Assembly: GCA_943356415.1 (NCBI GenBank)
Contig: CALREW010000002.1
Location: 6,639-70,638 of the forward strand
Reading direction: 5' to 3'
Source: Candidatus Nomurabacteria bacterium
GTDB taxonomy: Bacteria > Patescibacteriota > Minisyncoccia > Phycocordibacterales > SBAW01
DNA length: 64,000 nt
Part shown: piece by piece, positions 24,099 through 56,137 of the stretch
Layout: each line of letters begins with the position of its first letter
Position numbering within the stretch: the first letter of the stretch is position 1
The notes under the pieces: model-generated
Database searches by the model: none
Told to the model about the DNA's origin: nothing
Seen by the model: only the letters and a program-made list of their open reading frames with translations
Made by a program: the position numbers and the translations under genes

Positions 24099-27000
24099 TC
24101 ACTGGTGTGCAAGGCACCAGCAACACGCGTTTTCGAACATCCTGAGCCAGGGGGAGGCGGCATCCTCCTTCCAATTGTCAGGCGTATAGACCCATTGCCA
24201 CGGAAGAACCGCGCGCTCAGGGTGCGGCATCATACCGAGGTGACGTCCGTCCGCAGAGCAGAGCCCTGCGATGCCGAGCGGCGAACCGTTCGGATTGTAC
24301 GGGTAGCTTTCAGTCGAGATGCCTTGCGGCCCCACGAACCGAAGTGGTAAGAGCTTCTTACGCATGATATCCGCGAGCACGTCTTGGTTCGGGAAGTTGT
24401 ATCTCCCCTCACCGTGCGCACTATGGATGCCCAGCACTGACCCTTCCATCCCTTGCAAGAAGATGGACGGGCTCTCGTAGATGCGCAGCATGCTCCACCG
24501 AGACTCAAACCGTCCCGACGCGTTGTGCCCCAAGTACGGGCGCGACGCCTCGTCACGGTCGCTTCCAGGCAGAACTTTCAGATGCTGCATGAACTGGTTG
24601 CCGTTGCAGACTCCCAGCGACAACGTATCGGGGCGCTTGTAGAACGCCTCGAACATCCTGCGCACCTTGCGATTGAAGCGAACCACAGCCGCTTGACCAC
24701 GCCCCGCACCGAAGACGTCCTTGAACGAAAACCCTCCGGGGTACGCGAGCAGTTGGAACTGGTCCAGCGTGCTCACGCGTCCTTCGAGGATGTCGCTCAT
24801 GTGAACGTCCCACGGCGAGAAGCCTGCCAAATGCAGCGCGCCCCACATCTCCTCGTGGCCGTTACTCCCCTCTTCGCGCAGCACTGCAGCTTTCGGCCGC
24901 GTTGCCGTTTGAGAGAAGACCGCCGGAGCCGTCGGCGTGAAAGAGCGCTTGTACCGCACGGGCTTCGCTGCCTGATGCGATTTCGCTTCCTCACACGCCG
25001 TTGCAGTAGCGCTCTGCCCTGCGTTCAACGCATCGCTCGTCGATTTCCACCATTCACGCAGCGTCGTGATCTGCTCGCCCATAACAAGCGAGCCACGCGC
25101 ATCGCGAACACTGAGACGCCGCACCGATGTATTCCCGCGACCCAGGCGCACCATTCCGACGCCAAGGTTCTTGAAGGTCGAGGTTATGGACGCCTCGTCC
25201 TCCATCGCATACGCAAACACGTACCCGGCTTCCTCGGCGAAGAGGTACGGCAGCGGATCTACTCCTTGCGGGAGGTTGATCTGCATGCCGAAGCCAGACG
25301 CCACGCACATCTCGACGAGCGTTGCGATAAGCCCGCCGTGACTACGCGCGTGGTACGCGAGTACTTGCCTGCGCATGTGCAGCATTTGGAGTGCTTCAAG
25401 GGACTGCCGAAGCAGCTCAGGATCGATGTCGGGGCATTCGTTGCCGAGCTGTCCCAACGTCTGAGCGAGGCTCGAGCCGCCGAGGCGATTCAAACCTTTC
25501 CCTAGATCAACAAAGCCGATTGCGACACCAGCCTTCAAAGAAGGCAGCGCCGCAGTCACTCCACGCCGAATGTTGAGCACCGGCGCGTAGCCCGTGAGGA
25601 CAAGCGTGCCTGGCGAGGCAACTGTTACCCCACCGATTTTCACCGACATGGACAAGCTGTCCTTACCGCCGGTAATGCGAGTCCTCGTACGGTTGTGGAT
25701 GTCTGCGAGGGCGTCGGCCGCCGCATACAGACGAGCCATTTCTCCTTTCATGCTCGCTGGCCACATCCAATTAGCCTGAGTGCAGATTTCCTGCGTTCCG
25801 GAAATTGCCGCCGCACCCATATTGAGGTACATGTCTGCATACGCCATTCGCGCACCGGCCCGAGGGTCGATGAGCGACATGATAGGCCGCTGCCCCACCG
25901 TCATTGCGGCACCGGTTGTCGTGAAGTAAGAGTCGGAAGTTACGCCGACCCGACCGACAGGCACTGCCATCGGTCCGCACGTATGTGAGCGTGCCACTTT
26001 GCCTCCAACACTTGAATCACCGAGCGTGGTGACCCATCGGTTGGAACCAACCCTGGGAAGCCGCAGCACATTGCGCAACGCCTCGGTGACGCTTAATCCC
26101 TGAGGGATTCTAAGCGGCGGGAGTTCACGCGCGACCGTCACGTCTTCGATCGTGAGCTGACCGACCGCACGACGCAATTCCGCGTAGGTGAGATCGACAA
26201 GCGTCGCATCGTCGGTCGAATCGATGAAGCGGATGGTGCCGCTGTCATCGACTTTGCCCAACACTTCAAGTGGCACACGCTCTCGCGTGCAAATCGCTTG
26301 AAACACCGGCAGATCTTCCGGTGCAATGACAACGCCGAAGCCCTCTTGGCTTTCGCCGAGTAGCTTTTCAACTCGCCGAATCGACGGATCACCCAAATTG
26401 AGCGCTCCGAGGTCGAGCGTGGCGCCGAGCTGATCAACGAGCTCGGTACCGAGACTTCCGACGCCGGCTGCGCCCTGGTCGTGGATGGCCTTGAACGGAT
26501 TGCGCCCAAGCATCGCGACTGCAGCGTTGATGGCGCGGAACGTACGGCATCCCATCTCTGGGTCGCCGCGTTGCACCGCCTCATCATTCTGTTTTGCCGA
26601 GTTCGCACTCTGATCGGCACTTGAAGCAGTAGCGCCACCGAACCCTAAGTTGAACGTCGGTCCGCCGTAGCGGATGGCGAGCATCCCTGGTTTCAATTCC
26701 GCTTTCTTCTGGTGCTGACTGAGTACGCGACCCATGCCGCCGACAACGAGAATCGGCTTTCGATTTCCCACCCGATCACCCCACGGCATTCCTTGCTCGA
26801 AGGAATCGATGTTCCAGAGGATGGTCGGGTGACCAGACGCGTTGGCGTAATCACACGCACCGTGCGCCCCTTCAAGCAGAATGCGCAGTGGCGTAGCTAG
26901 TGTTGGGTCATGCAGTTCTGGGATTTCGCCCGGGATCGCATGCCCCTTGATGTTGAGGTTGCCGACGGAGATGCCGGCCCATAGCGCAACGCCTGGGTAT

Positions 27001-27932
27001 GCGCCGATGCCGATGGCATAGAGGTCGCGCAGAAGTCCTCCGACGCCGGTTGCCGCACCAGGAAACGGTGCGATCGATGTCGGGAAATTATGCGTTTCGA
27101 CTTTGCCTGTCGGGTTGAGTGTGTGTCGCACGATTGCACCGGTCGTTTTGTCGACGACGAAACAAACCGGCGACGGACCACCCGGTTCAAGTGGCAGAAA
27201 CAGCGGCACCGGCGCAAGTCCGTGCATGGCGCTCGCGTTGTCGCTGAAGGCGACCGTCGCGATGCCATGCTCAGCTCGGTGAGGTGCCCTGACAAGATCA
27301 AACAGCGTGTACGGCATGACGTTGCCATCGATGACGATACGCGCGTTGAACTTCAGGTGTCGGCTGTGGTCTGAGTTGTACGCCGGGAGGAAGAACAGCT
27401 CTTCGACAGTCGGGTCGCGACCTTTCTGAACGAAAAAGGCTGTGTAGGCCTCCTGCTGTGCGACGCTTAGCCCGATGCTGAACTCAGTGTTCGCACGTCT
27501 GAGCGCCTCCACTCCTTCCGTCATCACCGGAACTCGGACAAAGCGTTCCGCCGTCCGAGCACCAGTAAGTGTCGTGGGCAGCGTGGCGTAAACCGACTGG
27601 GTCATACGGTCGAAGCCTTGCGCGAGCAGCTGCTCCTCGGTTTGCGTGCCGAGGACGCGATGCTCGAACCGTTCGATTCGCGTCACGGGAACGTCGATTG
27701 ACCCGAGAATGGCCGAACCATTGGCCGACTCAGGCGTCGAGAACATTAGACGCGGTCCGACGGTTAGCATGCCGGCGAGATCCGGCTGAACATTTCTGAC
27801 CGAATGACCTGAACCGCCAAGAAGATATTCCAACTTGACGATATCAGCCGGCTTGAGCGCTCGCGCGGACTCGACAATAAAGCAATCGACCGGCGCGCCG
27901 CCTTTGTGGCGGTAGAGTACGGACGTATGCAT
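24099..27932 (-). CDS. purL: phosphoribosylformylglycinamidine synthase, large single-chain type (PurL with fused glutaminase domain)
   Basis: AIRS-type motif HNFPTSIAPFPGAATGVGGLLRD and a C-terminal class-I GATase motif LSLGVCNGNQFM, about 1277 aa. The tracked ORF is extended to 28223; the ATG at 27930-27932 (MHTSVLYRHKGG...) is the likely start. The gene is about 60% GC, above the 50% background. Confidence 0.9.
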   Translation of the reverse strand: MHTSVLYRHKGGAPVDCFIVESARALKPADIVKLEYLLGGSGHSVRNVQPDLAGMLTVGPRLMFSTPESANGSAILGSIDVPVTRIERFEHRVLGTQTEEQLLAQGFDRMTQSVYATLPTTLTGARTAERFVRVPVMTEGVEALRRANTEFSIGLSVAQQEAYTAFFVQKGRDPTVEELFFLPAYNSDHSRHLKFNARIVIDGNVMPYTLFDLVRAPHRAEHGIATVAFSDNASAMHGLAPVPLFLPLEPGGPSPVCFVVDKTTGAIVRHTLNPTGKVETHNFPTSIAPFPGAATGVGGLLRDLYAIGIGAYPGVALWAGISVGNLNIKGHAIPGEIPELHDPTLATPLRILLEGAHGACDYANASGHPTILWNIDSFEQGMPWGDRVGNRKPILVVGGMGRVLSQHQKKAELKPGMLAIRYGGPTFNLGFGGATASSADQSANSAKQNDEAVQRGDPEMGCRTFRAINAAVAMLGRNPFKAIHDQGAAGVGSLGTELVDQLGATLDLGALNLGDPSIRRVEKLLGESQEGFGVVIAPEDLPVFQAICTRERVPLEVLGKVDDSGTIRFIDSTDDATLVDLTYAELRRAVGQLTIEDVTVARELPPLRIPQGLSVTEALRNVLRLPRVGSNRWVTTLGDSSVGGKVARSHTCGPMAVPVGRVGVTSDSYFTTTGAAMTVGQRPIMSLIDPRAGARMAYADMYLNMGAAAISGTQEICTQANWMWPASMKGEMARLYAAADALADIHNRTRTRITGGKDSLSMSVKIGGVTVASPGTLVLTGYAPVLNIRRGVTAALPSLKAGVAIGFVDLGKGLNRLGGSSLAQTLGQLGNECPDIDPELLRQSLEALQMLHMRRQVLAYHARSHGGLIATLVEMCVASGFGMQINLPQGVDPLPYLFAEEAGYVFAYAMEDEASITSTFKNLGVGMVRLGRGNTSVRRLSVRDARGSLVMGEQITTLREWWKSTSDALNAGQSATATACEEAKSHQAAKPVRYKRSFTPTAPAVFSQTATRPKAAVLREEGSNGHEEMWGALHLAGFSPWDVHMSDILEGRVSTLDQFQLLAYPGGFSFKDVFGAGRGQAAVVRFNRKVRRMFEAFYKRPDTLSLGVCNGNQFMQHLKVLPGSDRDEASRPYLGHNASGRFESRWSMLRIYESPSIFLQGMEGSVLGIHSAHGEGRYNFPNQDVLADIMRKKLLPLRFVGPQGISTESYPYNPNGSPLGIAGLCSADGRHLGMMPHPERAVLPWQWVYTPDNWKEDAASPWLRMFENACCWCLAHQ

Positions 27933-27959
27933 GGCGTGCCCCTTCCTGTGGCAGATTTC

Positions 27960-27994
27960 AAAAAAACACGCACCCTCTACAAAGAGAAGGTGCA
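27960..27994 (-). terminator. intrinsic terminator / attenuator hairpin inside the purL 5' leader
   Basis: Minus-strand GCACCTTCTCTTTGTAGAGGGTGC (9-bp stem) followed by GTGTTTTTTTG, ending about 28 nt upstream of the purL ATG. Confidence 0.5.
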
Positions 27995-28088
27995 TCCAAA
28001 TGAACAGTACCACTCGCCCTCTATATGAAAAGGTGGGCCAGGCCCCTATGCGTTGCACGCAAAAGAGGCCTCTGATAGAGTGGGCGTA

Positions 28089-28319
28089 ATGGATGCTCAA
28101 ACGGTGCTTCCCTATGTCGAAATAGGGCTCTCCGTCCTCATCATCGCGGCCGTCCTGCTTCAACAGAGCGGCGCATCGATGGGCGGTACCCTCGGAGGCG
28201 ACAACTTCTCTGCGGCGTTCCACACACGCCGTGGCGCTGAGCGCGTTCTCTTTTACGCGACCGTTGTCCTCGGGGTACTCTTCGCGCTTACGGCTGTCTT
28301 CGCGCTCATCATCGCGTAG
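28089..28319 (+). CDS. secG: preprotein translocase subunit SecG
   Basis: Two TM helices and LLQQSGASMGGTLGG. The tracked ORF starts at 28053; MDAQTVLPYVEIGLSVLIIAAV fits SecG N-termini better. Confidence 0.7.
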   Translation: MDAQTVLPYVEIGLSVLIIAAVLLQQSGASMGGTLGGDNFSAAFHTRRGAERVLFYATVVLGVLFALTAVFALIIA

Positions 28320-28369
28320 GCCACAAAAGCGGCATCCACTGCCACTCCCTTACTTAGATTTCTCGCGCT

Positions 28370-30124
28370 ATGGATCTGATTCGGCGGACACTCTCCGCCC
28401 GCATACACATTCCTGGCCTCACTGCGGCCAATGATATTGTCTCGGGACTAACCGGTCTCGGTCGTTTGTTATTCTTTTTCTTCGCCGGCCTTCTCGTCGC
28501 AAGCTCAATCGCGCTTGTGTGTATGGCGAGCAAGAACTTTCTCGTTGAAGTACCCGCTGCAGGCGGTTCTATCACTGAAGGAGACGTTGGTGCGCCGCGT
28601 TTTATCAACCCACTTCTTGCACTCTCAGAAGCAGATCGTGACGTGGTAGCGCTTGTATATTCGGGTCTTCTGCGCGCAACACCAGAAGGAACGTTTATTG
28701 CTGACCTCGCCGAGAGTTACTCCATAAGTGAGGACGGCAGAACCTATTCCTTTACGTTGCGTCCTGACGCCACCTTCCACGACGGCACACCCGTTACCGT
28801 AGACGACATTGTGTACACCGTTGAGCGCGCGCAAGATCCGGCCATCAAAAGTCCGAAGCGCGCCAACTGGGACGGCGTAACCGTTGAAAAAATTAACGAC
28901 CGCGAAGTTACCTTTACCCTGCGCGCGCCGTACGCTCCGTTTATCAGCAATGCCACGATGGGCATATTGCCCAAGCATCTTTGGGAAGAAGTCTCCGCTG
29001 AAGAATTTCCATTCAGCAACCTCAATACCGAAGCGATAGGTACCGGACCGTATTTCATATCGTCAGTCTCGCGCAATGCCTCGGGTATTCCAGACACGTA
29101 TCAACTGAGCCCCTTTAGTGACTACGCGCTTGGGAAGCCGTACCTCAGTCGCATTACGCTGCGTTTTTATGAAAGTGAGGATGAACTTATCAGTGCACTC
29201 AGCCGAGGAGAAGTCGAAGCAGCAAGCGGACTGACCCCCGCAAAACTCTCGTCGCTCCCTGAAGGAACGTCGATACGTCGCGCGCCGCTCAATCGTGTGT
29301 TTGGTGTCTTCTTCAATCAAAACCAATCCGAGGTACTCCGCGAACCTGAAGTGCGCACCGCGCTAAGCCAAGCAATCGACCGCGAGGCACTTGTTTCTGA
29401 AGTCCTCGAGAGTTACGCAACTCCTATTAACGAGCCTCTGCCGCCAGGCATCGCTCCGGCGTCACCTACACCAGTCGCAGTCGCAACCACGTCTCCATCC
29501 GCCGCAGCACGCGCATATCTTGAAGCGCGCGGTTGGAAATATGACGACAATCTTGGAGCGCTCGCACGAAAAAAAGGAAAGACGACCGAGGTACTGCGCT
29601 TCACACTCGCGACTGCGGATGTGCCTGAACTTCGCGCTGCCGCTGAGTTCGTTCGCGCTGCATGGAAACAAGCGGGTGCCGATGTTGAAGTAAAAATCTT
29701 CGAATCGGGGGACCTCAACCAAAACGTGATACGGCCACGCAAATACGACGCACTCCTCTTCGGCGAGATTGTGGGACGCGAACTTGATCTCTTTGCATTC
29801 TGGCACTCAAGCCAGCGCAACGACCCAGGGCTTAATATTGCCCTCTATGCAAATGCGACGTCCGACAACTTGCTTGAGGAATTACGTGTGGCACAAAGCG
29901 CATCGGAACGCCGCAGCTTGTATGAAAAGTTCCGTACCGAGCTCGCCAAAGATACGCCAGCGGTATTTCTCTACGCACCAGACTTTACCTACGCATTTCC
30001 AAACCACATCGAGGGTATGCAGCTGACTGCCATTTCGCAGCCCTCGGAACGCTTCCTTGACGTCTATCGTTGGCACCGCGAGGTTGACCTGGTTTGGACG
30101 TTCCTAACCCGTTTTACGCAATAA
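28370..30124 (+). CDS. ABC transporter substrate-binding protein, family 5 (peptide/nickel type), membrane-anchored
   Basis: N-terminal TM anchor plus SBP_bac_5-like regions (FTLRPDATFHDGTPVTVDDIVYTVERAQDPAIKSP...). Confidence 0.8.
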   Translation: MDLIRRTLSARIHIPGLTAANDIVSGLTGLGRLLFFFFAGLLVASSIALVCMASKNFLVEVPAAGGSITEGDVGAPRFINPLLALSEADRDVVALVYSGLLRATPEGTFIADLAESYSISEDGRTYSFTLRPDATFHDGTPVTVDDIVYTVERAQDPAIKSPKRANWDGVTVEKINDREVTFTLRAPYAPFISNATMGILPKHLWEEVSAEEFPFSNLNTEAIGTGPYFISSVSRNASGIPDTYQLSPFSDYALGKPYLSRITLRFYESEDELISALSRGEVEAASGLTPAKLSSLPEGTSIRRAPLNRVFGVFFNQNQSEVLREPEVRTALSQAIDREALVSEVLESYATPINEPLPPGIAPASPTPVAVATTSPSAAARAYLEARGWKYDDNLGALARKKGKTTEVLRFTLATADVPELRAAAEFVRAAWKQAGADVEVKIFESGDLNQNVIRPRKYDALLFGEIVGRELDLFAFWHSSQRNDPGLNIALYANATSDNLLEELRVAQSASERRSLYEKFRTELAKDTPAVFLYAPDFTYAFPNHIEGMQLTAISQPSERFLDVYRWHREVDLVWTFLTRFTQ

Positions 30125-34778: not shown

Positions 34779-35030
34779 TTAGGCTTTCGGGCGAGCTTCG
34801 CTCACGGTGAGCGAACGACCGCCAAAATCCTTACCATTCCACATTTCGATTGCAGCCTGTGCCTCAGCATCAGATGCCATCTCGACGAAGCCGAAACCCT
34901 TCGAGCGGCCAGTCTCACGGTCCATAACGATGGAAGCCGATGCAACTGATCCAGCCTGAGCGAAGGACTCTTCGAGCTCCTCTTTGGTGGTGCGGTACGG
35001 GAGACCGCCTACGAATAGCTTTGTAGCCAT
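34779..35030 (-). CDS. RRM-type RNA-binding protein (glycine-poor, single RRM)
   Basis: RNP2 KLFVGGL and RNP1 KGFGFVEM. An untranslated leader of about 100 nt lies upstream. Confidence 0.8.
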   Translation of the reverse strand: MATKLFVGGLPYRTTKEELEESFAQAGSVASASIVMDRETGRSKGFGFVEMASDAEAQAAIEMWNGKDFGGRSLTVSEARPKA

Positions 35031-44466: not shown

Positions 44467-46020
44467 ATGGCTCGCCCGAAGATTCTTGTCGTGGAGCTCG
44501 GCTCCCAATACACCCAGATCATCGGCAGGGCCCTGCGCGAGCTCGGGTACCGTACTGCCATCCTCGACCCTAAGAAGGCCGAGAGGTGGGCTGCGAATCA
44601 CGAGGTCAAGTGCGTCATTCTCTCCGGCGGTCCCCATTCGGTAACCGACGTGGATGCGCCGAAGCCTACGGAGCAGATGATGCGTCTCCTCTCCGAGCGC
44701 AACGTCCCCATCTTCGGGATCTGCTTCGGCATGCAGTGGCACGCACACCTCCTCGGCGGCACCGTCGAGAACATCGAAGCCAACCGCGAGTTTGGTCACG
44801 CGCTCGCCGCGCTTGATCCAGCGTCGCCGCTTTTCGCTGGCCTCAATGAAGAAGAGCGAGTCTGGGCGAGCCATGGCGACACGGTCACCACGCTCCCCGA
44901 CGGCTTTAAGGCCATCGGCTGGCAGACCACGAGCGGTGCTATCACCGCCATGGCCTCGACCAACGAACGGGTCTTCGGCGTGCAGTTCCACCCCGAAGTG
45001 ACCCACACACCCTCGGGCAAGGCGATCCTCGAGAACTTCGTTTCCAGCATCGCTGGCTGCGAACGCGACTGGGACCCGACGCTCTTGGTCGGAGAAATCC
45101 GCCAACATCTGTCGGAGCTCGCCAAGGACGGTGCGAAAGCCATCATCGGCTTCTCTGGCGGCGTCGATTCAACGACGCTCGGCGCCATCGCCTCTTCGGT
45201 CTTCGGCGAGCAGCTGCTCGCAGTTGCCGTGGACGCTGGCCACATGCGCGAAGACGAGATGGAGGAAGTGAAGCGGCACGCACAAGCGGCCGGTCTCACC
45301 CTACGGATCGTCGACGCACGCGAGAAGTGCCTCAAGGCACTCTCGTTCGAGACAGACTCCGAGAAGAAGCGAAAGGCCTTCACCAAGATCTACGAGGAAG
45401 CCTTCGCCGAAGTGGCGGCCGAGTTCGACGCCACCATCTTCCTGCAGGGTACGCTGGCGCCCGACGTCATCGAATCCGGCGAAGATGGACGCGACCTCAT
45501 CAAGTCGCACCACAACGTCAAGGCGAAGGTCGAAGGTTGCGAGTCGTTGCACCCGCTCGCGAGCCTCTTCAAGTACGAGGTCCGCGAAATCGCCAAGAGC
45601 CTCGACCTTCCCGAAAGCGTCTGGAAGCGCCAGCCGTTCCCGGGACCCGGCCTCACACTGCGCGTTGTCGGTGCCATGGTGACCGACGACGCGATGGCGC
45701 TAGTCCGCAAGGCGGACGCCATCGTGACCCGCGTACTCAAGCAGCACGGCGAGTACGACAAGGTAGACCAGCTGGTCGTGGCGATGCTGTGCATCAAGAC
45801 GACCGGGGTCAAGGGCGATGCGCGTTCCTACGGCTTCTCGATCGCCGTACGCGGCGTCATCACTTCCGACTTCATGACTGCGGAAGGGTACGATTTCCCA
45901 ACCGCCGTGAAGAAGGAGATCTCGCGCCAGGTCACCAAGCTCAAGATCGGTTACTACGACATCGTGCGTGTCCTGTGGGACACCACCGACAAACCGTCGG
46001 GTACGACGGAATACGAATAG
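44467..46020 (+). CDS. guaA: GMP synthase (glutamine-hydrolysing)
   Basis: GATase GICFGMQ with a catalytic Cys, PP-loop FSGGVDS, and the GMP synthase C-terminal domain. RBS GAGGAGGGG upstream. The gene is about 62% GC with strong GC3 bias, above the background. Confidence 0.95.
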   Translation: MARPKILVVELGSQYTQIIGRALRELGYRTAILDPKKAERWAANHEVKCVILSGGPHSVTDVDAPKPTEQMMRLLSERNVPIFGICFGMQWHAHLLGGTVENIEANREFGHALAALDPASPLFAGLNEEERVWASHGDTVTTLPDGFKAIGWQTTSGAITAMASTNERVFGVQFHPEVTHTPSGKAILENFVSSIAGCERDWDPTLLVGEIRQHLSELAKDGAKAIIGFSGGVDSTTLGAIASSVFGEQLLAVAVDAGHMREDEMEEVKRHAQAAGLTLRIVDAREKCLKALSFETDSEKKRKAFTKIYEEAFAEVAAEFDATIFLQGTLAPDVIESGEDGRDLIKSHHNVKAKVEGCESLHPLASLFKYEVREIAKSLDLPESVWKRQPFPGPGLTLRVVGAMVTDDAMALVRKADAIVTRVLKQHGEYDKVDQLVVAMLCIKTTGVKGDARSYGFSIAVRGVITSDFMTAEGYDFPTAVKKEISRQVTKLKIGYYDIVRVLWDTTDKPSGTTEYE

Positions 46021-46045
46021 CCGACTGATCATCGGCCCGAACACA

Positions 46046-46084
46046 GAAGGGCGCCGGCGGAAGCCGACGCCCTTCGTCTTTTTA
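46046..46084 (+). terminator. rho-independent terminator of guaA
   Basis: GAAGGGCGCCGGCGGAAGCCGACGCCCTTC followed by GTCTTTTT. Confidence 0.6.
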
Positions 46085-47503: not shown

Positions 47504-48568
47504 TTATCCGAAAGTAAAAGCATAGAAACGAACTCTTCCCTCTTTTACTCGCAGTTCGAGTTGGTGGGACTCTGCAGAATCTGCGTGCATCACATGGTAG
47601 AGTTTGCTTTCTCTTACCGTTATTACTCCGTCAACGACGTCAGTTTGAGTGAGCGTCCCTACCACCACATCGTCAATGAGAACTTCTACAGCAGAGGGGC
47701 TGTCCGCAGCCGCAACAATATAAACATCCTTTGCATCATATCGGTACACAACGGACGCTCCTGTTGCCCTCGTCTCTGCGTACTCAGGCCCAATAGCCCA
47801 CGAACCACTGAGATAGAGCGTATTTGAAGCAAGTGTCCCTGGCACAACAAAGGTATCCGTCACAGGAGCGCCCGGTATGCCGTTGCCAAGCCGTTCATTT
47901 CTAAGCGATCCAAAGTACGTCTCAGGACTTTGCGTCTCAACAATATCTTTACGCACCTTTGATGCAGCAAGATTCCCGACTAAAGCATCGTTATTAGTTT
48001 CTCCAAGTACGTGAGCTCGCTCGTCGAGCAATGCACGTATTTTCGTCTCCGTTTCTTCGTACCCACCTTCTCCGATGTGGTCATATACAACATTGCCATG
48101 AATATCGATAAGATATTTATGCGGCCAGTAGCTATTGTGATACGCGTTCCAGGTACCATACGCATTATCCAGAACAATGGGAAATGTCAGTCCGAATTGT
48201 GAAGCTGCAGCTTTCACGTTGGCGATATCCTTCTCGAAAGCGAACTCGGGGGTGTGTATGGCAACAATCTCAAACCCCTTGTCATGATAGGCCTCGTACC
48301 ACGCACGAAGGTACGGGAAGGTGCGCTGACAATTGATGCAACTGTAGGTTAAGAAGTCGACCAATATCACCTTTTTGCCGACAATATCTTTCAACGCTAT
48401 CGGGCCGGTATTAACGAAACCTGAAGGGTTAACTATCTCTGTGTATGGTGTTCCTGCGTACATTTCTGCAGCGTTTTTTTGTATGGCGGGTGCTTTGCTA
48501 AAGATAAGGGCAAGGCTGAGTGCCGCAACTATCAAAACAACTCCCGCAATGGCGTAGATTACTTTCAT
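47504..48568 (-). CDS. thioredoxin-fold thiol-disulfide oxidoreductase (TlpA/ResA-like) with an extra C-terminal domain
   Basis: Signal anchor plus a redoxin domain with CxxC (LTYSCINCQRTFPYL). Its stop overlaps the upstream ccdA. Confidence 0.75.
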   Translation of the reverse strand: MKVIYAIAGVVLIVAALSLALIFSKAPAIQKNAAEMYAGTPYTEIVNPSGFVNTGPIALKDIVGKKVILVDFLTYSCINCQRTFPYLRAWYEAYHDKGFEIVAIHTPEFAFEKDIANVKAAASQFGLTFPIVLDNAYGTWNAYHNSYWPHKYLIDIHGNVVYDHIGEGGYEETETKIRALLDERAHVLGETNNDALVGNLAASKVRKDIVETQSPETYFGSLRNERLGNGIPGAPVTDTFVVPGTLASNTLYLSGSWAIGPEYAETRATGASVVYRYDAKDVYIVAAADSPSAVEVLIDDVVVGTLTQTDVVDGVITVRESKLYHVMHADSAESHQLELRVKEGRVRFYAFTFG

Positions 48569-49299
48569 GATTGTGGCTGCACGCGCTGAAGCAGCAGCTG
48601 TTCTACTTTTGTAACGTCGATATATCCACTGTTGAGGATAGTTGTCTCAATTTTTTTCTCGAAACCAAACGCGATCGAAAGACCCAGAATAATAAACAAA
48701 ACTCCAATACCTCTTTTAAAGTAGCCGCGCGAGTCTGAAATCGCCGCGAGGCGATTTGCAAAACGCTGACCAAACAGTGCGACGAGTATTAACATGAGAG
48801 AGAGCCCCACTACGTATGCAAACAAATACAATGTCCCGAGCGCAAAGGAAGCCGGTAGTACCGAGGCAAGGATAACGAAGTATGTCGGCGAGCACGTGGA
48901 GAAAACTGGACCGAGGGCAGCGCCAACAACAACGTCACCCCATAGACTCTTCCCGCGAGCGCCTGCGCCAAGTGCATTATTAGACATCACAGAAAGACGC
49001 TGTACCCCAGGCAGATACTCCCACAGTGCAGGCATCGCAAGCGTTAAACCGAAGAGCGTTAGTATTCCGCCTGAAAGATAGGCCCACGCAGCAGCCGGCA
49101 CCATCACAAAAGCCGTAGACACCTTAAGAACGTAGGTGAAGAAGATGATAGACGCTGCAAGAGAAGCAACGACAACATACGGCGTCGCACGGCTCTTGCC
49201 AGTCGCCGCAGTCCCAAGCACGACAGGCAAAAGCGGCAAAATGCACGGAGCAAGAACCGTTAAGACACCGGCTAAAAATGAGACAGCGAGAAAGGTCAT
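48565..49299 (-). CDS. ccdA: cytochrome c-type biogenesis protein CcdA (DsbD family thiol-disulfide transporter)
   Basis: Six TM helices and the conserved Cys in LAPCILPLLPVVL. Confidence 0.8.
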   Translation of the reverse strand: MTFLAVSFLAGVLTVLAPCILPLLPVVLGTAATGKSRATPYVVVASLAASIIFFTYVLKVSTAFVMVPAAAWAYLSGGILTLFGLTLAMPALWEYLPGVQRLSVMSNNALGAGARGKSLWGDVVVGAALGPVFSTCSPTYFVILASVLPASFALGTLYLFAYVVGLSLMLILVALFGQRFANRLAAISDSRGYFKRGIGVLFIILGLSIAFGFEKKIETTILNSGYIDVTKVEQLLLQRVQPQS

Positions 49300-49301
49300 A
49301 C

Positions 49302-49574
49302 CTATTGAGACATGGCGCCGTCCTTCTTCATCATTGAATCACCTTCGTTCTTCATAGCACCACTGCTCATGGTCGAATCATCCTTTTTCATCATGTCGGC
49401 ATCACTCATTGAGGACGTCGCCATTGATTCGTCCTTTACTGGAGCATCTTTTTGCATCATCGTTGCGTCTTCTTTTGCGACCATTGCATCATTACGAGAA
49501 GTATTAAAGTGCCATAGCACCCCCGCTCCCCCAACAACAATGACGAGTCCAATAATCCACAGTGCTGCTTTCAT
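49302..49574 (-). CDS. Met-rich small secreted protein
   Basis: 90 aa with a signal anchor, then a tail of about 65 aa carrying 15 Met in repeats (MMQKD, DADMMKKDDSTM, DSMMKKDGAMS). It sits 3 nt upstream of ccdA. Confidence 0.5.
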   Translation of the reverse strand: MKAALWIIGLVIVVGGAGVLWHFNTSRNDAMVAKEDATMMQKDAPVKDESMATSSMSDADMMKKDDSTMSSGAMKNEGDSMMKKDGAMSQ

Positions 49575-49630
49575 AGATAGAAATGTTTTTTATCGCTTGT
49601 ATATAAAAAGTGTAAGCGAAAGAAATATGA

Positions 49631-49650
49631 ATGTAAAGTTGACTTTACAT
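49631..49650. promoter_or_regulatory. candidate operator palindrome ATGTAAAG-N4-CTTTACAT, copy 1
   Basis: Perfect 8-4-8 palindrome 57 nt upstream of the Met-rich gene start. It is identical in its arms to copy 2 at 50285. Confidence 0.5.
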
Positions 49651-49682
49651 TACCTCTGTGGAGAACTGCATGTTCCACGGCA

Positions 49683-50048
49683 CTAGCGACGACTGTCGAT
49701 GTAGAGACGACTACCAAGCTTGCCTAGAAGCATCGCCACCAACCCGCCTACAAGCCACGGATCAACAGCGTGTGAAAACGATTGCACAGCAACTCCAACG
49801 ACCATAACTCCTGCACCAACAAGATATGCTGCACGTCCTGCAAAGGTGCGGTTTGCTTCGTCACGCTCATCCTGAGCATCTTCACGTAGGACAAAGGCCG
49901 CAAAAAGCCCAAACACGACAAGCGCTGCAGCTGCGATGCCCATAACTACCATGCTCGGCATAAATAAATCGAATGGATTAAGCAAAACAAGTGCCAGCGC
50001 AGCGAGTGCAGCGGCGGCGATGCCCTCTTTAAGATAGCTGGTGTTCAT
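49683..50048 (-). CDS. membrane protein partner of the XRE regulator (3-4 TM helices)
   Basis: Overlaps the XRE gene stop by 4 nt, indicating an operon, and is hydrophobic throughout. Confidence 0.5.
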   Translation of the reverse strand: MNTSYLKEGIAAAALAALALVLLNPFDLFMPSMVVMGIAAAALVVFGLFAAFVLREDAQDERDEANRTFAGRAAYLVGAGVMVVGVAVQSFSHAVDPWLVGGLVAMLLGKLGSRLYIDSRR

Positions 50049-50251
50049 GATGATATTGAAAATAATTTCTCGACGGGCACTGAGAATAATTTTGCAAGCT
50101 TAAGTGCGAGCAAAACAGAGGGTGTGTAATTACCCTTCTCGATAGCGATGATGGTCTGGCGGCTCACACCGACGTGCTCGGCTACATCCTCCTGCGTCAT
50201 CATTGCTTTTGTGCGTAACACATTCACCGTATTGCTAACACGCGCTGTCAT
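50045..50251 (-). CDS. XRE-family helix-turn-helix transcriptional regulator
   Basis: Cro/C1-type HTH: LRTKAMMTQEDVAEHVGVSRQTIIAIEKG. Confidence 0.85.
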   Translation of the reverse strand: MTARVSNTVNVLRTKAMMTQEDVAEHVGVSRQTIIAIEKGNYTPSVLLALKLAKLFSVPVEKLFSISS

Positions 50252-50304: not shown

Positions 50305-50418
50305 TCAACATACCAGGCACCTGCTACGATTTGACGTAGCCACTGCGCTTCACTAGGCTTGCTTCGGGAACACCGTTGAAAGCCCGCCCGAAAAATTGAT
50401 GACCGAGGGGAGCCGACT

Positions 50419-50892
50419 ATGCGTACCTTCTTAAGCCTTGCGTGCGCCCTTTTTGCCACCGCAGCCGCTATGTCCTGGAGCACGACTGCGTCGGCGCAAC
50501 CGACACAGAGCGAACTGCCGAAGGCTGACCGCGACCGGTGCAACAAAGTGGGGCCCGACGGTCAGCCACTTCTGCTTCGCCCGGGAGACGAAGGCTATCG
50601 GCACGCATGTCTGCACCAGTACTACAAGCAGCTGTACGATGCCGGCAAATGTCATTGCCATACCGGTTATTGTCGGCCGACAAGGATCCGGTACGTCGCT
50701 GGCATAAGCGAGGTTCTCATCAGCGGGGTCTGGTATGAGTTTCCTCGCGAAGCGTTGAAGCGCAAAGCCGAGGTGCCGCCGGAGCTCTGGGAACACGAAG
50801 CTCACGTCTGTGCCCACCCACTCGGTGGCACCGACGAGAAGGGCCGTCCAAAAGTGAACATCGAATGCGTCATGGAAAATGCCGCAGGATGA
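50419..50892 (+). CDS. hypothetical secreted Cys-rich protein (high-GC gene)
   Basis: Signal peptide MRTFLSLACALFATAAAMS, 9 Cys including CHCHTGYC. The gene is about 61% GC, with its own RBS GAGGGGAG and a downstream hairpin. Confidence 0.5.
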   Translation: MRTFLSLACALFATAAAMSWSTTASAQPTQSELPKADRDRCNKVGPDGQPLLLRPGDEGYRHACLHQYYKQLYDAGKCHCHTGYCRPTRIRYVAGISEVLISGVWYEFPREALKRKAEVPPELWEHEAHVCAHPLGGTDEKGRPKVNIECVMENAAG

Positions 50893-50897
50893 CACCG

Positions 50898-50931
50898 CGC
50901 CCCGCCGACCTTCGAGGTCCGGCGGGGCGCA
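50898..50931. terminator. GC-rich terminator hairpin after the 50419 gene
   Basis: CGCCCCGCCGACCTTCGAGGTCCGGCGGGGCG. Confidence 0.45.
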
Positions 50932-50944
50932 GCCAATTTAGAGA

Positions 50945-51364: not shown

Positions 51365-51367
51365 ACG

Positions 51368-51589: not shown

Positions 51590-51706
51590 TACGCCATTGT
51601 ACCGTACGAGGCATGTCTTTTCCTGAACACAGGTATTTGACGCCGCGCATCCTATTTAGTTCAGTTCTCTTTGGAGAACCACCACAACGACAAGGGGCTT
51701 ATAGCT

Positions 51707-52222
51707 ATGGACATCGTCGACGCCGGAGGAAGCTTCGGCAAGGACTACGGCGAGGGAAAGGGCGTGGACAACTTCACATTCGGTACCACGTCGCCCGTCT
51801 ACGACATGCTCGCGCGCATGAAGTGCGAGATGCCGCACACCATTCGCGTCCCTTTCCAGAAGGACAGCCTACGGATGACGGACACAGACCGCGAGGTTAT
51901 CGCGCGGCTCTGCGTGCGCGAACCGAGCATGAGCGACCGCGTGGTCATCATCCACGGCACCGACACCATGCTCGAGACCGCCAAGGCGATTTCCGGCATG
52001 TGGTTGGCACACGGCCTCACCATCACCCGCACCATCGTGCTCACTGGCGCCGGCAGGCCGGCGTCCATGCGCATCACCGATGCCGACCTACAGTTCGGCT
52101 ACGCCTTCGGCGTCGCGAAGCTGTTGCCGCCCGGCATCTACATCGCCATGAACGGCGAACACCACCTCTGGAGTGAATGCCAGAAGTGCGACGACGGCGT
52201 CTTCCGCAAGATCGCTGCCTAG
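51707..52222 (+). CDS. asparaginase-family N-terminal-domain-like protein (half-size, high GC)
   Basis: HGTDTM motif (VVIIHGTDTMLETA) typical of L-asparaginase/GatD, but only about 170 aa. RBS AAGGGGC lies 8 nt before the ATG at 51707. The tracked ORF starts at a TTG at 51671. The gene is about 62% GC. Confidence 0.5.
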   Translation: MDIVDAGGSFGKDYGEGKGVDNFTFGTTSPVYDMLARMKCEMPHTIRVPFQKDSLRMTDTDREVIARLCVREPSMSDRVVIIHGTDTMLETAKAISGMWLAHGLTITRTIVLTGAGRPASMRITDADLQFGYAFGVAKLLPPGIYIAMNGEHHLWSECQKCDDGVFRKIAA

Positions 52223-52254
52223 CCGCCTTCGGGCGACCCGACCCACGAACACAG

Positions 52255-52281
52255 AACCCCGCCCGGGAGATGGGCGGGGTT
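52255..52281 (+). terminator. terminator hairpin after the 51707 gene
   Basis: AACCCCGCCCGGGAGATGGGCGGGGTT. Confidence 0.5.
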
Positions 52282-52289
52282 CGTGCTGT

Positions 52290-52328
52290 ATTAGGGCACC
52301 CTAGTGGCTATCTACTCTAATTTAGTGG
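52290..52328. repeat. intergenic palindromic repeat element, copy D (partial)
   Basis: ATTAGGGCACCCTAGTGGCTATCTACTCTAATTTAGTGG. It overlaps the stop of the 52322 gene. Confidence 0.45.
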
Positions 52329-52801
52329 ACCCTCGCGTAGGTCGTAACGTCACCACGACCGGTAAGGTCTGTGGTTGTAAGTATTTCACTGGTGAGGTCA
52401 GTTACCACGAAGTACGTGGTTTCTACTCCCCCTTCCCATTCAACTTTTACAACAGTCTTACCAGGGAAACTCGCGAGAGGAACAGAGGGGTTAGTTTCCT
52501 TTGCGAGATCAACAATCTTCCACTGCCCGTTCACGCCCGCAGTTGCATCTCCTTGATAGCGATCAATAATCACGCCATCTGCGCGAATCTCACGCGTAAA
52601 CTTTCCATCTGCATTACTTCTCCAGGTGCCGGAGAGCTGAGTCTCCATGCTTACCGTTCCATTCGTAGCTGCCTGTTGCGTTGTCTGCTGTGTGCCGTCC
52701 GTAGTTGCAAGCGGAGCGGTGGCATCCTTTGGCCAGAAGTAGAACGCTGCTGCAGCGACTGCAACAACTGCGACCAAGCCCGTAACAAATCGTGCGTTCA
52801 T
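52322..52801 (-). CDS. hypothetical secreted protein
   Basis: 159 aa with a signal anchor and a beta-rich composition. Confidence 0.4.
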   Translation of the reverse strand: MNARFVTGLVAVVAVAAAAFYFWPKDATAPLATTDGTQQTTQQAATNGTVSMETQLSGTWRSNADGKFTREIRADGVIIDRYQGDATAGVNGQWKIVDLAKETNPSVPLASFPGKTVVKVEWEGGVETTYFVVTDLTSEILTTTDLTGRGDVTTYARVH

Positions 52802-52828
52802 AGGTATACGATTAATGTGACTAATCTA

Positions 52829-53404
52829 TTATTGCGCCAATACTCCTACCTTAAAGGTAGCAAGAGTACTCTCAGGGCGCGACTGTCCTCCATGCTGCTT
52901 GGTGAACGCTTCTGTTCCATCCTTGCCACAGAGGCCCAAAATGGCCTGACGACCACCCGGATGTCTATCAATCCAACTCGTTACGTCATAGACCATGCCG
53001 TTTACGATTGTGTAGCAACTTGCTTCAGAATTGTGCTTCGCTACTTCATCAGCAGTAAATGGCGTTGTTGGCGTTTCTTTTGGGGTGACGTCTGCAACTG
53101 GCTGCTTCTTTGTGTACTGATACGCGTAGTACCCGCCGCCAATAATCGAACCCTTGTACCAGGTCACCTCCCCCATCATGGGCGACGTAAACGCGATATA
53201 GATGATGCCCGAAAGGACGGACGCTGCGACAAGATTTCCCAAAAGATTCCAGAGCATCTGCGGGATCATGCTCGAGAATTTTTCATTTCCCGTCGGATGA
53301 ATATTTGCCAATCGCATCCAAAGCTTGCCGGTCACCGGCCCATGTGCGAGAAACCCAATAATAAATACCGCCACAGCGGCAAGAACGATAGTGAGTGGAT
53401 TCAT
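52829..53404 (-). CDS. membrane protein with a C-terminal cytochrome b5-like heme-binding domain (DUF1761-like N-terminus)
   Basis: N-terminal 3-4 TM region, then FTADEVAKHNSEASCYTIVNGMVYDVTSWIDRHPGG (the cyt-b5 HPGG motif). Confidence 0.6.
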   Translation of the reverse strand: MNPLTIVLAAVAVFIIGFLAHGPVTGKLWMRLANIHPTGNEKFSSMIPQMLWNLLGNLVAASVLSGIIYIAFTSPMMGEVTWYKGSIIGGGYYAYQYTKKQPVADVTPKETPTTPFTADEVAKHNSEASCYTIVNGMVYDVTSWIDRHPGGRQAILGLCGKDGTEAFTKQHGGQSRPESTLATFKVGVLAQ

Positions 53405-53563
53405 AGATACTTAGTATAGCTAAAACATTAGCGACTGCGACCTCTCTTTTCTTTACGCTTATTGGAAAAATTTCTCCCCACCGCCTCAAATCGGGCAGCT
53501 TGAACGGGGACATTTTGCCGAGCGCTATTTCGTCTATCTTGTCTATTCATACGCTTTGGTTGG

Positions 53564-54985
53564 TTAGGGCTTACTAAGAGAGTTTAACTTAGCGCGAGTT
53601 GCAGGACCCACCGTTCCCGTCTGCTCAATACCGTAGCGCTTTTGAAAACGCTTCAGTGCTGCTTCAGTTGCCGCACCAAACGTACCGGTTACCAAACCTT
53701 CTGGATAAATCGTTTTGTCCTTAGCGAGAAAGGTTTGGAGGGCAGAGACATCCGGATGCTTTGTTCCGCGGCGAAGAGCGGCAGTAAATTTGTATGCGTT
53801 GCTCGTTGCCGCAGATGAACTTGTTTGCGGCGGAGCTTGGACAACTGCGATGCTTGAAGTGGAAACCGCAGTGACTGTCGGCATCATGGTTTGCCCTATT
53901 GGTAATACGGTTATCTCTGCCATCTGTGCGTTGCTGCCGTAGAAGTAGGAGCCATTCGCTTTTTGTGCAAGAAACATCACGCGCACCGTTTGTGGCGAGT
54001 ACGTGCGGTTGGTAAAGGTAATGGGAAACGCGTTTGAACTTGCCCCAATTGGAGTGGCGAACGCCGGAGTGTTGCATGCAAGAGTCGTTCCACCGCTTGT
54101 AATAACAACGTCCGCGCACGAGAACTGGAAGTTGGTGCTGGTGGCGTTAGTGACCGCAAACCCAAACTGCACTGCTCCACCTGAAGTAACCGTCGTTGCG
54201 CTTGCTTTGAAAGAAGTAATGATCGGATCTGGCATTGCAGGTTTTGGGGTCACTGTAATACCCACCTGTTTTCCGGCCGAGCCGTTGTAGAGTCCTGCCG
54301 TTATAGCTGGGAGCATATTTATAGAGACAGCTGCCGAGTTGGACGGATCATCGTTGATGATGCTCACTGTCTTTGAACCTGAGATGGGAAGGTCGCTCGG
54401 AAACGCTGGAGTGCCACACGGAAGCTGCACGCCATTTTCATCAAGAACACGAATATGGGCAGCGCAGTCAAAGCGCATGTTGGTTCCACCAACGTAGAGA
54501 CTCTCCCAACTGAGCGCGACGCTACTTCCCGAAGAAATAGTCTGCATGCTTGAAGTGAACGCGCTGATGGTTACAAAAGCTGATTCAACCGTGATAGACG
54601 CTTCTGCATAAGCAGAGTCATAACTCACACCGTAACTATCTTTTGGATAGAGGCGCGCCGTGACCGTCCTCGGTACACCGGCAACGTTGATAAACGTGAA
54701 GCCTGCCGAACCGACAGCACTCGAAGAGAGTGTCTGGCGACTATTGCACAGAAAATCAGAACCTTCGCGAGTGATGCGTACGCCAGTCGGGCACGTAAAG
54801 GTAATTTCCTCCGCTCCCCCGTTTGAAACATTCCACGCAACCGATGCGCTGTATGCGTTGTAAATCGACGAGGGATTGATGGTAAAAGAGTTTACGGACG
54901 GAGTTGCAGTAGCAAACGAAACAAGCGGTAGAGCAAAAAGCGCTGACGCAGATACATAGAGTGCTACGCGAGTGAACTTTTTCAT
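53564..54985 (-). CDS. secreted repeat protein with a C-terminal peptidoglycan-binding domain
   Basis: Signal peptide MKKFTRVALYVSASALFALPLVSFA, Ig-like Ser/Thr-rich repeats, and a C-terminal PG_binding_1-like region (HPDVSALQTFLAKDKTIYPEGLVTGTFGAATEAALKRFQKRYG). The tracked ORF is extended to 55105. Confidence 0.6.
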   Translation of the reverse strand: MKKFTRVALYVSASALFALPLVSFATATPSVNSFTINPSSIYNAYSASVAWNVSNGGAEEITFTCPTGVRITREGSDFLCNSRQTLSSSAVGSAGFTFINVAGVPRTVTARLYPKDSYGVSYDSAYAEASITVESAFVTISAFTSSMQTISSGSSVALSWESLYVGGTNMRFDCAAHIRVLDENGVQLPCGTPAFPSDLPISGSKTVSIINDDPSNSAAVSINMLPAITAGLYNGSAGKQVGITVTPKPAMPDPIITSFKASATTVTSGGAVQFGFAVTNATSTNFQFSCADVVITSGGTTLACNTPAFATPIGASSNAFPITFTNRTYSPQTVRVMFLAQKANGSYFYGSNAQMAEITVLPIGQTMMPTVTAVSTSSIAVVQAPPQTSSSAATSNAYKFTAALRRGTKHPDVSALQTFLAKDKTIYPEGLVTGTFGAATEAALKRFQKRYGIEQTGTVGPATRAKLNSLSKP

Positions 54986-55123
54986 ATCAAAAAGTATACC
55001 CCGCCTCACACATTGAGACGGTACTATTGCCTTTTCTAAAAAAGTTTGTATAGTTTTTCGCGGAACGCAACCACCGGTCCGTTTCCTTTCCTCATCCTCA
55101 ACCAACAGTCAGCGAGGGCAGCG

Positions 55124-56137
55124 ATGCCGACACGTGAATTCGACCTCCTCATCGTGGGAGGTGGGGCCGCAGGCCTCAGCGCTGCCATCAGCAGCGCGTC
55201 CGAGGGGCTCAACGTGGGTCTTCTCGACTCCGCGGCACAGCTCGGCGGCCAGGCCGGCAAGAGTTCTGCCATCGAGAACTACCCCGGGTTTGCCACACCG
55301 ATCAGCGGTGACGAACTGATGGCTCGGTGCATCGCCCAGGCGCGCCGCTTCAACACCAACATCCTGTGCCCCCAGAACGTCGTGGGCATCGTCCAGGATG
55401 GCAAGCGGCAGCTGGTGGTGACCGACGACGAGCAGTCCTACCTCGCCAAAGCTGTCGTGCTGAGCCTCGGTCTCGACTACCGTCGCCTGATGGCGAAGGG
55501 CATCGGTGACTTCATGGGCCGCGGCATCCTCTACGGCGCCCCGACCACTGACCCGAGCGCGCTCGGCGAATGCATCGTTTCTATCGTGGGCGGCGCCAAC
55601 TCGGCCGGCCAGGCGGCGATGCATCTGTCCAAGAACCCGAAAGCCAAGGTACGGCTGCTGGTTCGCAAGGCGCTCGACGACCAGATGTCGGACTACCTCA
55701 TCAAGTACATCCGGGCGGCGCCCAACATCGAAGTACTCGAAGGTGTCGAGGTCGTGGAGGCCTTTGGTGATTCGAAGCTGCAGGAAGTGGCGCTGAAGAA
55801 GTCTTCGAGCGAGGCGCTCGAGCGGCTGCAGACGCACCACCTCTTCATCTTCATCGGCGCACAGCCGCGGACCTTTTGGCTCAACGGCCACGTCGCCGTC
55901 GACGCCAAGAAGTTCATCGTCACCGGCGCGGATCTGCTGAAGGAAGGGAGAGACGTGAAGTGGCAGGGCGTCTGGAAGCATCCGAAGCGGTCACCGCTGC
56001 GGTACGAGACGAGCCTGCCTGGTGTCTTCGCCTGCGGCGATGTTCGGCTCGGCTCCACCAAGCGTGTGGCCGCAGCCTTCGGTGAAGGCTCCGGCGTCAT
56101 CCAGATCTGCCACGAGTTCCTCGCCCTCGATGAGTGA
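55124..56137 (+). CDS. FAD-dependent pyridine nucleotide-disulfide oxidoreductase, thioredoxin-reductase-like fold without the CxxC redox centre (ferredoxin-NADP reductase type)
   Basis: FAD site DLLIVGGGAAGLSAA, NAD(P) site VSIVGGANSAGQAA, and C-terminal GVFACGDV. There is no internal CxxC. RBS GCGAGGG lies before the ATG at 55124. The gene is about 63% GC. Confidence 0.7.
   Translation: MPTREFDLLIVGGGAAGLSAAISSASEGLNVGLLDSAAQLGGQAGKSSAIENYPGFATPISGDELMARCIAQARRFNTNILCPQNVVGIVQDGKRQLVVTDDEQSYLAKAVVLSLGLDYRRLMAKGIGDFMGRGILYGAPTTDPSALGECIVSIVGGANSAGQAAMHLSKNPKAKVRLLVRKALDDQMSDYLIKYIRAAPNIEVLEGVEVVEAFGDSKLQEVALKKSSSEALERLQTHHLFIFIGAQPRTFWLNGHVAVDAKKFIVTGADLLKEGRDVKWQGVWKHPKRSPLRYETSLPGVFACGDVRLGSTKRVAAAFGEGSGVIQICHEFLALDE

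Follow-up and report, generated by a model that had tools for sequence, protein, structure and literature searches.

The 64-kb stretch of contig CALREW010000002.1 from a Candidatus Nomurabacteria bacterium, called the window here when its full length of 64,000 nucleotides is meant, contains five scattered genes (purL, guaA, cys157, asnN and a trxR-like gene) whose GC content of 0.597-0.641 stands out from a background of about 50%. The initial annotation had picked out the same five at about 60-63% GC and regarded them as likely independent insertions from a high-GC donor, with actinobacteria or proteobacteria in mind. We lean, with some caution, towards a different origin, in which the five are genes of the Candidate Phyla Radiation (CPR) lineage and their GC-rich codons reflect a GC-rich Paceibacteria-type gene pool and not a non-CPR host. 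The compositional anomaly itself is confirmed, with four strong cases and a weak one, cys157. Gene-sized exchange within the phylum is an already documented pattern; the unexplained part is the persistence of high GC at third codon positions (GC3).

Composition of the five genes

The relatives used for comparison are metagenomic contigs: L003 and L085, pooled as the sister lineage R1 (SRR23592405) on an assumption drawn from their common sample, GC and synteny, and L004, which represents lineage R2 (SRR33230233). A literature search for the sample accessions ERR5863123/4 turned up no paper. The genes and their terminators are as follows.

24050..24073, minus strand: purL terminator hairpin, CGCCCAGGCCGGGAGGCCTGGGCG and then a T-tract; 9 G-C pairs among 10; -32 kcal/mol
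24099..27932, minus strand: purL, large single-chain phosphoribosylformylglycinamidine (FGAM) synthase; NF003672 1052 bits against a cut-off of 783; GC 0.600, GC3 0.680
44467..46020, plus strand: guaA, glutamine-hydrolysing GMP synthase; NF000848 466.5 bits against a cut-off of 400, residues 6-517; GC 0.624, GC3 0.817
46046..46083 (approximate), plus strand: hairpin with T-tract that terminates guaA, with homologues in R1 and R2
50419..50892, plus strand: cys157, secreted Cys/His-rich protein of 157 aa with the motif GKCHCHTGxCRPTR; GC 0.597, GC3 0.658
50897..50930 (approximate), plus strand: cys157 terminator hairpin, its stem nearly identical in the window and R1
51707..52222, plus strand: asnN, stand-alone short-chain asparaginase-like protein of 171 aa; PF00710 (asparaginase N-domain); GC 0.632, GC3 0.884, the highest
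52250..52285 (approximate), plus strand: asnN terminator hairpin, preceded, as is the guaA terminator, by the 11-mer CGAACACAGAA
55124..56137, plus strand: trxR-like gene, thioredoxin reductase (TrxR)-like FAD/NAD(P) flavoprotein without CxxC; Pyr_redox_2; GC 0.641, GC3 0.831
56162..56193 (approximate), no strand assigned: GC-rich hairpin between the trxR-like and FMN-reductase genes, a shared bidirectional terminator

The whole window has a GC of 51.8%, and the rises in its sliding GC profile coincide with these five genes: a plateau of about 0.60 at 24-28 kb, values of 0.62-0.63 at 44.5-46 kb and 55-56 kb, and smaller rises near 50.5 and 52 kb. GC3 is distributed bimodally among the window genes. 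The remaining 63 genes have a GC3 of 0.502 +/- 0.048, against which asnN reaches a z-score of 8.0, the trxR-like gene 6.9, guaA 6.6, purL 3.7 and cys157 about 3.2. In codon usage, scored against a multinomial null, the values are 26 for guaA, 23 for the trxR-like gene, 21 for purL and 13 for asnN, but below 2 for cys157. The neighbours lepA, groEL, typA and rnj, which had been put at about 48-52% GC, are found at 0.50-0.53. Because GC1 and GC2 of the GC-rich genes are native-like, the compositional signal sits at third codon positions.

The steps in GC coincide with gene boundaries on both strands, in agreement with the islands having been placed on both. For guaA, cys157, asnN and the trxR-like gene the step up falls at the start codon, the intergenic DNA upstream has host-like GC, and the rise ends just past the GC-rich terminator hairpin; the edges of purL are gradual because its flanks already have 0.53-0.62 GC. 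All five genes carry a GGAGG/AGGGG-like ribosome-binding site upstream and a GC-rich hairpin of -27 to -36 kcal/mol downstream, as had been claimed, but hairpins of this kind also follow native genes (GH18, -38 kcal/mol; lepA, -27 kcal/mol) and are thus not specific to the islands.

Two further candidates were rejected. An internal recombination mosaic within purL or guaA does not fit, GC3 being uniformly high along both genes (for purL in 80-codon blocks). The open reading frame (ORF) 52304-53419 on the plus strand, seemingly a sixth codon-usage outlier (z = 10), is spurious, being rich in Arg, Leu, Ser and Cys and antisense to two real genes. These minus-strand genes encode a secreted protein of 159 aa (52322-52801) and a protein of 191 aa with a cytochrome-b5-like HPGG motif (52829-53404).

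Among 1122 ORFs in 73 comparable Paceibacteria loci only about 1% lie at least 0.18 above the median GC3 of their locus, and about three lie at least 0.3 above it. The window is therefore enriched for GC3-high genes. Isolated ORFs with GC3 0.18-0.31 over the locus median were seen in named Paceibacteria metagenome-assembled genomes (MAGs), at L030 5280-6101 and 19263-20228, L045 12180-12596 and L047 9503-9874, so that similar mosaics occur elsewhere in the phylum.

A metagenome-derived contig with sharp GC steps could in principle be an artefact of assembly or binning, in which GC-rich and mid-GC organisms were joined into a chimera. To this explanation we attach practically no weight. Two independent Logan assemblies from other runs (L001 and L002) are 100% identical across guaA and purL including both flanks, which rules out an assembly chimera at these two genes; the steps fall at start codons and terminators and not at arbitrary points; and the mosaic recurs together with the gene order in a diverged relative from another sample.

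Relatives of the window and of the single genes

The closest named matches of typA are MAGs of Candidatus Paceibacterota (phylum Minisyncoccota in the NCBI taxonomy), Adlerbacteria, Kaiserbacteria and Wolfebacteria, with identities of at most 81%. Judged by these sequences, the host is a Parcubacteria/Paceibacteria-type CPR organism and not one of the Saccharibacteria proper; of the earlier description as a Saccharibacteria-like or CPR organism only the second part holds. The clade mixes mid-GC lineages (the window with about 50%, R1 with about 55%) with GC-rich ones (R2 with 62%, many named relatives with 55-63%).

In R1, guaA, cys157 and asnN stand in the same order as in the window with GC3 values of 0.81, 0.68 and 0.83 against flanks of about 0.53 (L003). 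The second contig from this sample, L085, is collinear with the window over 24-38 kb and has purL at the equivalent position, with a GC3 of 0.75 against about 0.55 in native genes. The R2 contig is collinear with 33.4-46.7 kb of the window, a stretch of 14 genes including guaA, its native genes being 45-96% identical; it has a uniform GC of 62%, with a GC3 of 0.75-0.83 in most genes. Any two of the three lineages differ by about the same amount in their native proteins (sigma70 0.82/0.81/0.81; HhH-GPD 0.58/0.59/0.61). Between the window and R1 the synonymous sites of native genes have nearly reached saturation, with a residual signal of 0.03-0.16. The shared positions and the homologous terminators of guaA and cys157 indicate that gene-plus-terminator units were in place before the lineages split. 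Therefore they are not recent independent insertions, as the initial annotation had implied. It had also asked whether orthologous loci in relatives lack the genes; guaA, purL, cys157 and asnN are all present in R1, in the same order and with the same GC mosaic, and guaA is present in R2 as well.

The guaA product has the Pfam domains GATase, NAD_synthase-like and GMP_synt_C and is 85% identical to its counterpart in L003 and 60% to that in L004. Pairwise identities among the three lineages are 0.85/0.61/0.62 for GuaA, while native genes are star-like. The GC3 of guaA is 0.82/0.81/0.83 in window, R1 and R2, against a genome GC3 of 0.50/0.55/0.80. All six named proteins among its top 120 matches belong to Parcubacteria or Patescibacteria (47-53% identity). 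The synonymous divergence of guaA is about half that of native genes (residual signal 0.35 versus 0.13-0.16), and the fraction of identical codons is 0.684 versus 0.518 expected at saturation (z = 9). Synonymous changes polarised by parsimony, an approach compromised here by saturation and composition bias, lean from strong (G or C) to weak (A or T) bases with 18:6 and 23:9. The low synonymous divergence and this lean are compatible with slow decay, with constraint at synonymous sites and with a later coalescence. None of 80 more distant named relatives carries guaA within 10 kb of typA, but rearrangement of the locus means that these genomes offer no clean empty site.

The 11-mer CGAACACAGAA occurs exactly twice in the 64-kb window: the copy at 46038-46048 directly precedes the terminator hairpin of guaA and the one at 52246-52256 that of asnN, both of them GC-rich genes; by a rough estimate about 0.03 exact copies are expected by chance. 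The R1 counterparts of the two sites do not show it. The element may be a common 3'-UTR element or the mark of a shared origin.

The purL product fits the large single-chain form of PurL: N-terminal, PurM-like and glutaminase domains are joined in one protein, which exceeds the NF003672 cut-off; with 1053.5 it falls just under the TIGR01735 cut-off of 1123, and the FGAR-AT linker domain was not detected in the window or R1 protein. Window and R1 (L085) PurL share 63-64% of their residues, compared to 93% for RNase J, which marks purL as fast-evolving. The closest named matches are Patescibacteria, Saccharibacteria, Doudnabacteria and Moranbacteria with 36-40% identity, and the closest of all reach 43-44%. 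Animals and Proteobacteria follow after CPR, with 36-38%. In a neighbour-joining tree the window and R1 proteins form a long branch outside the proteobacterial clade; in the same tree animal PurL groups with CPR sequences and not with Proteobacteria. Actinobacteria are known for the split PurL/PurQ/PurS form and are not known to use the fused large PurL. In the CPR contig L174, from a genome of about 62% GC, purL (44% identical) matches the composition of its neighbours; upstream of it lies a lower-GC methyltransferase block (L174 1-6917, GC3 0.38-0.69). In the window purL stands alone between groES/groEL and secG, and apart from purL and guaA no purine-biosynthesis genes were found in the 64 kb.

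For cys157 no Pfam or NCBIfam match was obtained, and its family is rare, with 94 cluster representatives among 1.84 billion. The orthologue in L003 has a GC3 of 0.68 and is 46% identical in amino acids; the terminator stem is better conserved between window and R1 than the protein. Its motif and several invariant Cys and His positions point to a secreted protein that binds metal or is rich in disulfides.

The initial annotation had called asnN a half-size asparaginase-like gene. It matches the asparaginase N-domain, and its best PDB matches are stand-alone asparaginases of 185 aa (8UOO series, E = 2e-17, residues 3-151 against 23-162), so that asnN appears to be a short-chain form and not a truncated gene. 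We take the 8UOO series to be RrA-type short-chain asparaginases of Rhodospirillum rubrum. With these asnN shares the stand-alone length of about 170-185 aa, which equals the N-domain of type I enzymes, and the conserved HGTDTM motif. It differs in the N-terminal motif, GGS in the window against the canonical GGT retained in R1, and its activity is putative. Its positional counterpart in R1 (L003 4694-5233, GC3 0.83) is only 34% identical in amino acids, while neighbouring native genes reach about 70%.

The trxR-like protein shares with TrxB and with TrxR-type ferredoxin-NADP+ reductases a two-domain FAD/NAD(P) fold of about 330 aa. Its best PDB matches are thioredoxin reductases (4ZN0, E = 7e-29), the ferredoxin-NADP+ reductases 3LZW and 6GAS being weaker. 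In contrast to TrxB, it has no redox-active CxxC: YGAPTTD aligns with YCAICD of 4ZN0, so that CxxC is replaced by G-A-P-T, and the TIGR01292 score is 173 bits against a cut-off of 343. It is therefore not a thioredoxin reductase. The FMN-reductase gene (56209-56760, minus strand) is convergent with it.

All three named proteins among the top 120 matches of this protein are from Pacebacteria, Parcubacteria or Paceibacterota (47-59% identity). It is 56-60% identical to members of a CPR subfamily and at most 50% to all 80 metagenome matches. The hosts of the homologues described next are all CPR, as judged by comparing their native genes, including RpoD, DnaB and HisRS, with named MAGs. In L086 (4251-5252) the trxR-like gene has a GC of 0.60 and a GC3 of 0.69, while the flanks have a GC of 0.36 and the neighbours a GC3 of about 0.23. 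This is the most extreme case observed, the gene standing between PGA_cap and Dus genes with all 12 neighbours at a GC3 of 0.21-0.31. In the Pacebacteria MAG L087 (flank GC 0.51) it has a GC of 0.60 and a GC3 of 0.71 and lies between the genes for L27 and L9, so the contexts in L086 and L087 differ. In the syntenic GC-rich CPR lineage of L170, L171 and L173 its GC3 is 0.79-0.80, which matches the neighbours in L170 and L171 (about 0.7-0.8) and exceeds those in L173 (about 0.6). In three related MAGs of lower GC (L070, L081 and L083) the loci sampled contained no trxR-like gene. An intrinsic GC requirement of the family was considered and rejected: in 80 more distant members from metagenomes the gene GC tracks the flank GC over 0.38-0.75 with a difference of 0-0.06. 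The trxR-like gene, which stands out from its surroundings in at least three CPR genomes besides the window, behaves as a mobile accessory gene among CPR genomes.

A reverse mosaic was also seen, in which low-GC defence-type blocks lie inside GC-rich CPR genomes and adjoin the trxR-like gene (L170 9784-13571, L171 9683-11989, L175 1975-7086; GC3 0.37-0.49). They contain genes for a DNA methylase, BglII, GmrSD, an SLFN-like helicase and SNF2/NOV_C.

Origin and persistence of the GC-rich codons

As episymbionts, CPR bacteria have the DNA of their hosts within reach, and recent independent insertions from a GC-rich non-CPR host, an actinobacterium or proteobacterium, would be compatible with GC3 values of 0.82-0.88, as expected from a donor of 60-65% GC. 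Also, more distant trxR-like homologues (40-46%) lie on GC-rich soil contigs. However, such an origin is hardly credible. The named matches of guaA and of the trxR-like gene are all Patescibacteria, as are the closest named ones of purL, and the guaA, purL and trxR-like match lists contain no actinobacterial proteins. The identity gap of the trxR-like protein between CPR and metagenome matches, the position of purL outside the proteobacterial clade and the age of the mosaic, which predates the split of window and R1, all speak against it. The codon usage is likewise CPR-like: the GC-rich genes correlate with GC-rich CPR genes at a mean r of about 0.875, compared to 0.82 for soil contigs of equal GC3; for purL alone the values are 0.85 and 0.75. 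For leucine the codon CTC is favoured over CTG, a preference that CPR genomes share. On these grounds we reject an actinobacterial or proteobacterial donor.

What had been proposed as horizontal acquisition therefore stands in part. The foreign composition is real and a lateral origin is plausible, most clearly for the trxR-like gene; the donor, the recency and the independence of the events do not hold up. For guaA, purL and the trxR-like gene, the suggested search for top hits outside the flanking lineage led back to the same phylum, Patescibacteria, with no actinobacterial hit. At this level the genes group with the lineage of their neighbours, the very outcome that the initial annotation had named as speaking against it. 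The genes thus appear congruent with the host lineage at phylum level; inside CPR the trxR-like gene has a patchy distribution that does not follow gene context.

In the origin from a GC-rich CPR gene pool that we favour, GC-rich relatives would have supplied, or had in common with the window lineage, units the size of a gene, each consisting of an ORF and its terminator. Four of them, guaA, purL, cys157 and asnN, would have been in place before window and R1 split, and the trxR-like gene would belong to an accessory CPR subfamily moving between CPR genomes. We infer that lateral transfer rather than retention made the mosaic, and that amelioration was slow or was offset by repeated allele replacement.

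Exchange of this type is known. Of the transfers detected into Patescibacteria 83% come from Patescibacteria and one event comes from Actinomycetota, the exchange pairs having a mean divergence of about 24% (PMC12455944), and lateral transfer together with gene loss has left CPR with a patchy accessory metabolism (PMC7304191). The five genes resemble this intra-phylum transfer in that single accessory or metabolic genes are concerned, mostly between CPR and often long ago, with a patchy distribution and without obvious scars of mobile elements (PMC12455944; PMC7304191). They differ in that the GC3 contrast is strong and outlasts a split with near-saturated synonymous sites, while ancient transfers normally lose their compositional signals (PMC12455944), and in that no donor-recipient pair was identified. 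A Microbiome 2025 paper on oxic adaptation of CPR has no content bearing on these genes.

The concept of compositionally atypical 'alien' genes and the model of their amelioration reportedly go back to Lawrence and Ochman. The window genes are similar to such genes in their atypical GC3 and codons, confined to gene-sized units on both strands among native genes. However, guaA, asnN and the trxR-like gene do not show the decay expected under amelioration, no tRNA, integrase or direct repeats accompany the genes, and four of the five are syntenic.

Several observations weigh against a transfer from GC-rich relatives. The collinearity of guaA with R2 over 14 genes and its homologous terminator in three lineages fit vertical descent as well as ancient transfer. 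The donor is unsampled: trxR-like proteins are mutually 56-70% identical, and the nearest outgroup of purL stands at 44%. Although native sites are near saturation, GC3 in window and R1 is still 0.82/0.81 for guaA and 0.68/0.75 for purL; by a rough two-state estimate, neutral amelioration could arrive at these values only from an ancestral GC3 of about 1.0 or higher. No Pfam domains of integrases or transposases were found among the genes neighbouring the islands, tRNAs lie far away, flanking direct repeats are just short and at chance level, and the named relatives, in which the locus is rearranged, provide no clean empty site.

In a second explanation, the common ancestor of window, R1 and R2 was GC-rich like R2, the window and R1 drifted to a GC3 of about 0.5, and a few vertically inherited genes were held high by a gene-specific force. 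This force might be selection acting at synonymous positions, GC-biased gene conversion where accessory genes recombine frequently, or a low level of mutation associated with transcription. We consider this possible, though doubtful. It would account for the synteny, the homologous terminator and the even GC3 of guaA in three lineages of different genome GC3, for the high GC3 of guaA and purL in both mid-GC lineages in spite of near-saturated native sites, and for the halved synonymous divergence of guaA, which is as expected under constraint. Moreover, 16 of the 22 closest typA relatives (at least 76% identity) have a typA GC3 of at least 0.60, which makes a GC-rich ancestor plausible. However, no force is known that would set a few genes apart by 0.3 in GC3, and the highly expressed and conserved groEL, typA and lepA stand at 0.50-0.52. 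GC3 is highest in asnN, the gene that diverges fastest, and this argues against simple constraint. The lean of polarised changes in guaA points to some decay under way, and the high GC of the trxR-like gene in CPR genomes and gene surroundings unrelated to the window is beyond what a relic can explain.

Translational selection, by which highly expressed or specially regulated genes would have acquired preferred GC-ending codons, agrees with a shift confined to ORFs and third positions while GC1 and GC2 stay native-like. We think it very improbable nevertheless. groEL, groES, typA, lepA and the RNase J gene are not GC3-rich, and neither a small secreted protein nor a short asparaginase nor PurL would be expected among the top-expressed products. 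The trxR-like gene keeps its GC in hosts with a GC3 of 0.23, 0.55 and 0.50, and this constancy does not fit host-specific tRNA adaptation.

It is conceivable, if rather unlikely, that mid-GC Paceibacteria contain a set of genes with their own stable equilibrium GC3 of about 0.8, outlasting the synonymous saturation of their neighbours. GC-biased gene conversion in accessory genes recombined via natural competence, or synonymous selection, could for example be the cause. The pattern would then be a heritable compositional mosaic and not a fading scar of transfer.

For the origin in a GC-rich CPR gene pool, the consequence is that high-GC genes of a CPR episymbiont do not have to come from its host; those in the window trace to GC-rich relatives of its own phylum. 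GC-based calls of 'alien' genes in CPR should be linked to a host only after homologues and synteny have been checked. The GC3 contrast of about 0.3, which recurs in the same genes across lineages with near-saturated native sites, would, if its persistence is real, offer a natural test bed for amelioration versus GC-biased conversion or selection in ultra-small bacteria.

Neighbouring genes and minor features

Redox genes are frequent in the stretch from guaA to the trxR-like gene (MsrA/B, FMN reductase, a DsbD-like protein and a thioredoxin-like AhpC/TSA protein). About 3 kb of it, at 47504-50251 in the interval between msrA and cys157, are missing in the R1 contig (compare L003 3287-3667). 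This extra part contains the genes for the thioredoxin-like AhpC/TSA protein and the DsbD-like protein and three small ORFs. The length difference is an indel in an otherwise collinear redox-gene region.

Among the background genes the highest GC3 (0.68) belongs to the ORF 6457-6771 on the minus strand, which would encode 104 aa and has no Pfam match; if a real gene, it may be a sixth weak outlier. A small RRM-domain protein (34779-35030, minus strand) is 96-99% identical across window, R1 and R2. Its gene has a synonymous residual of 0.33-0.48, compared to 0.03-0.16 in other native genes, and this conservation hints at a constraint at the RNA or codon level.

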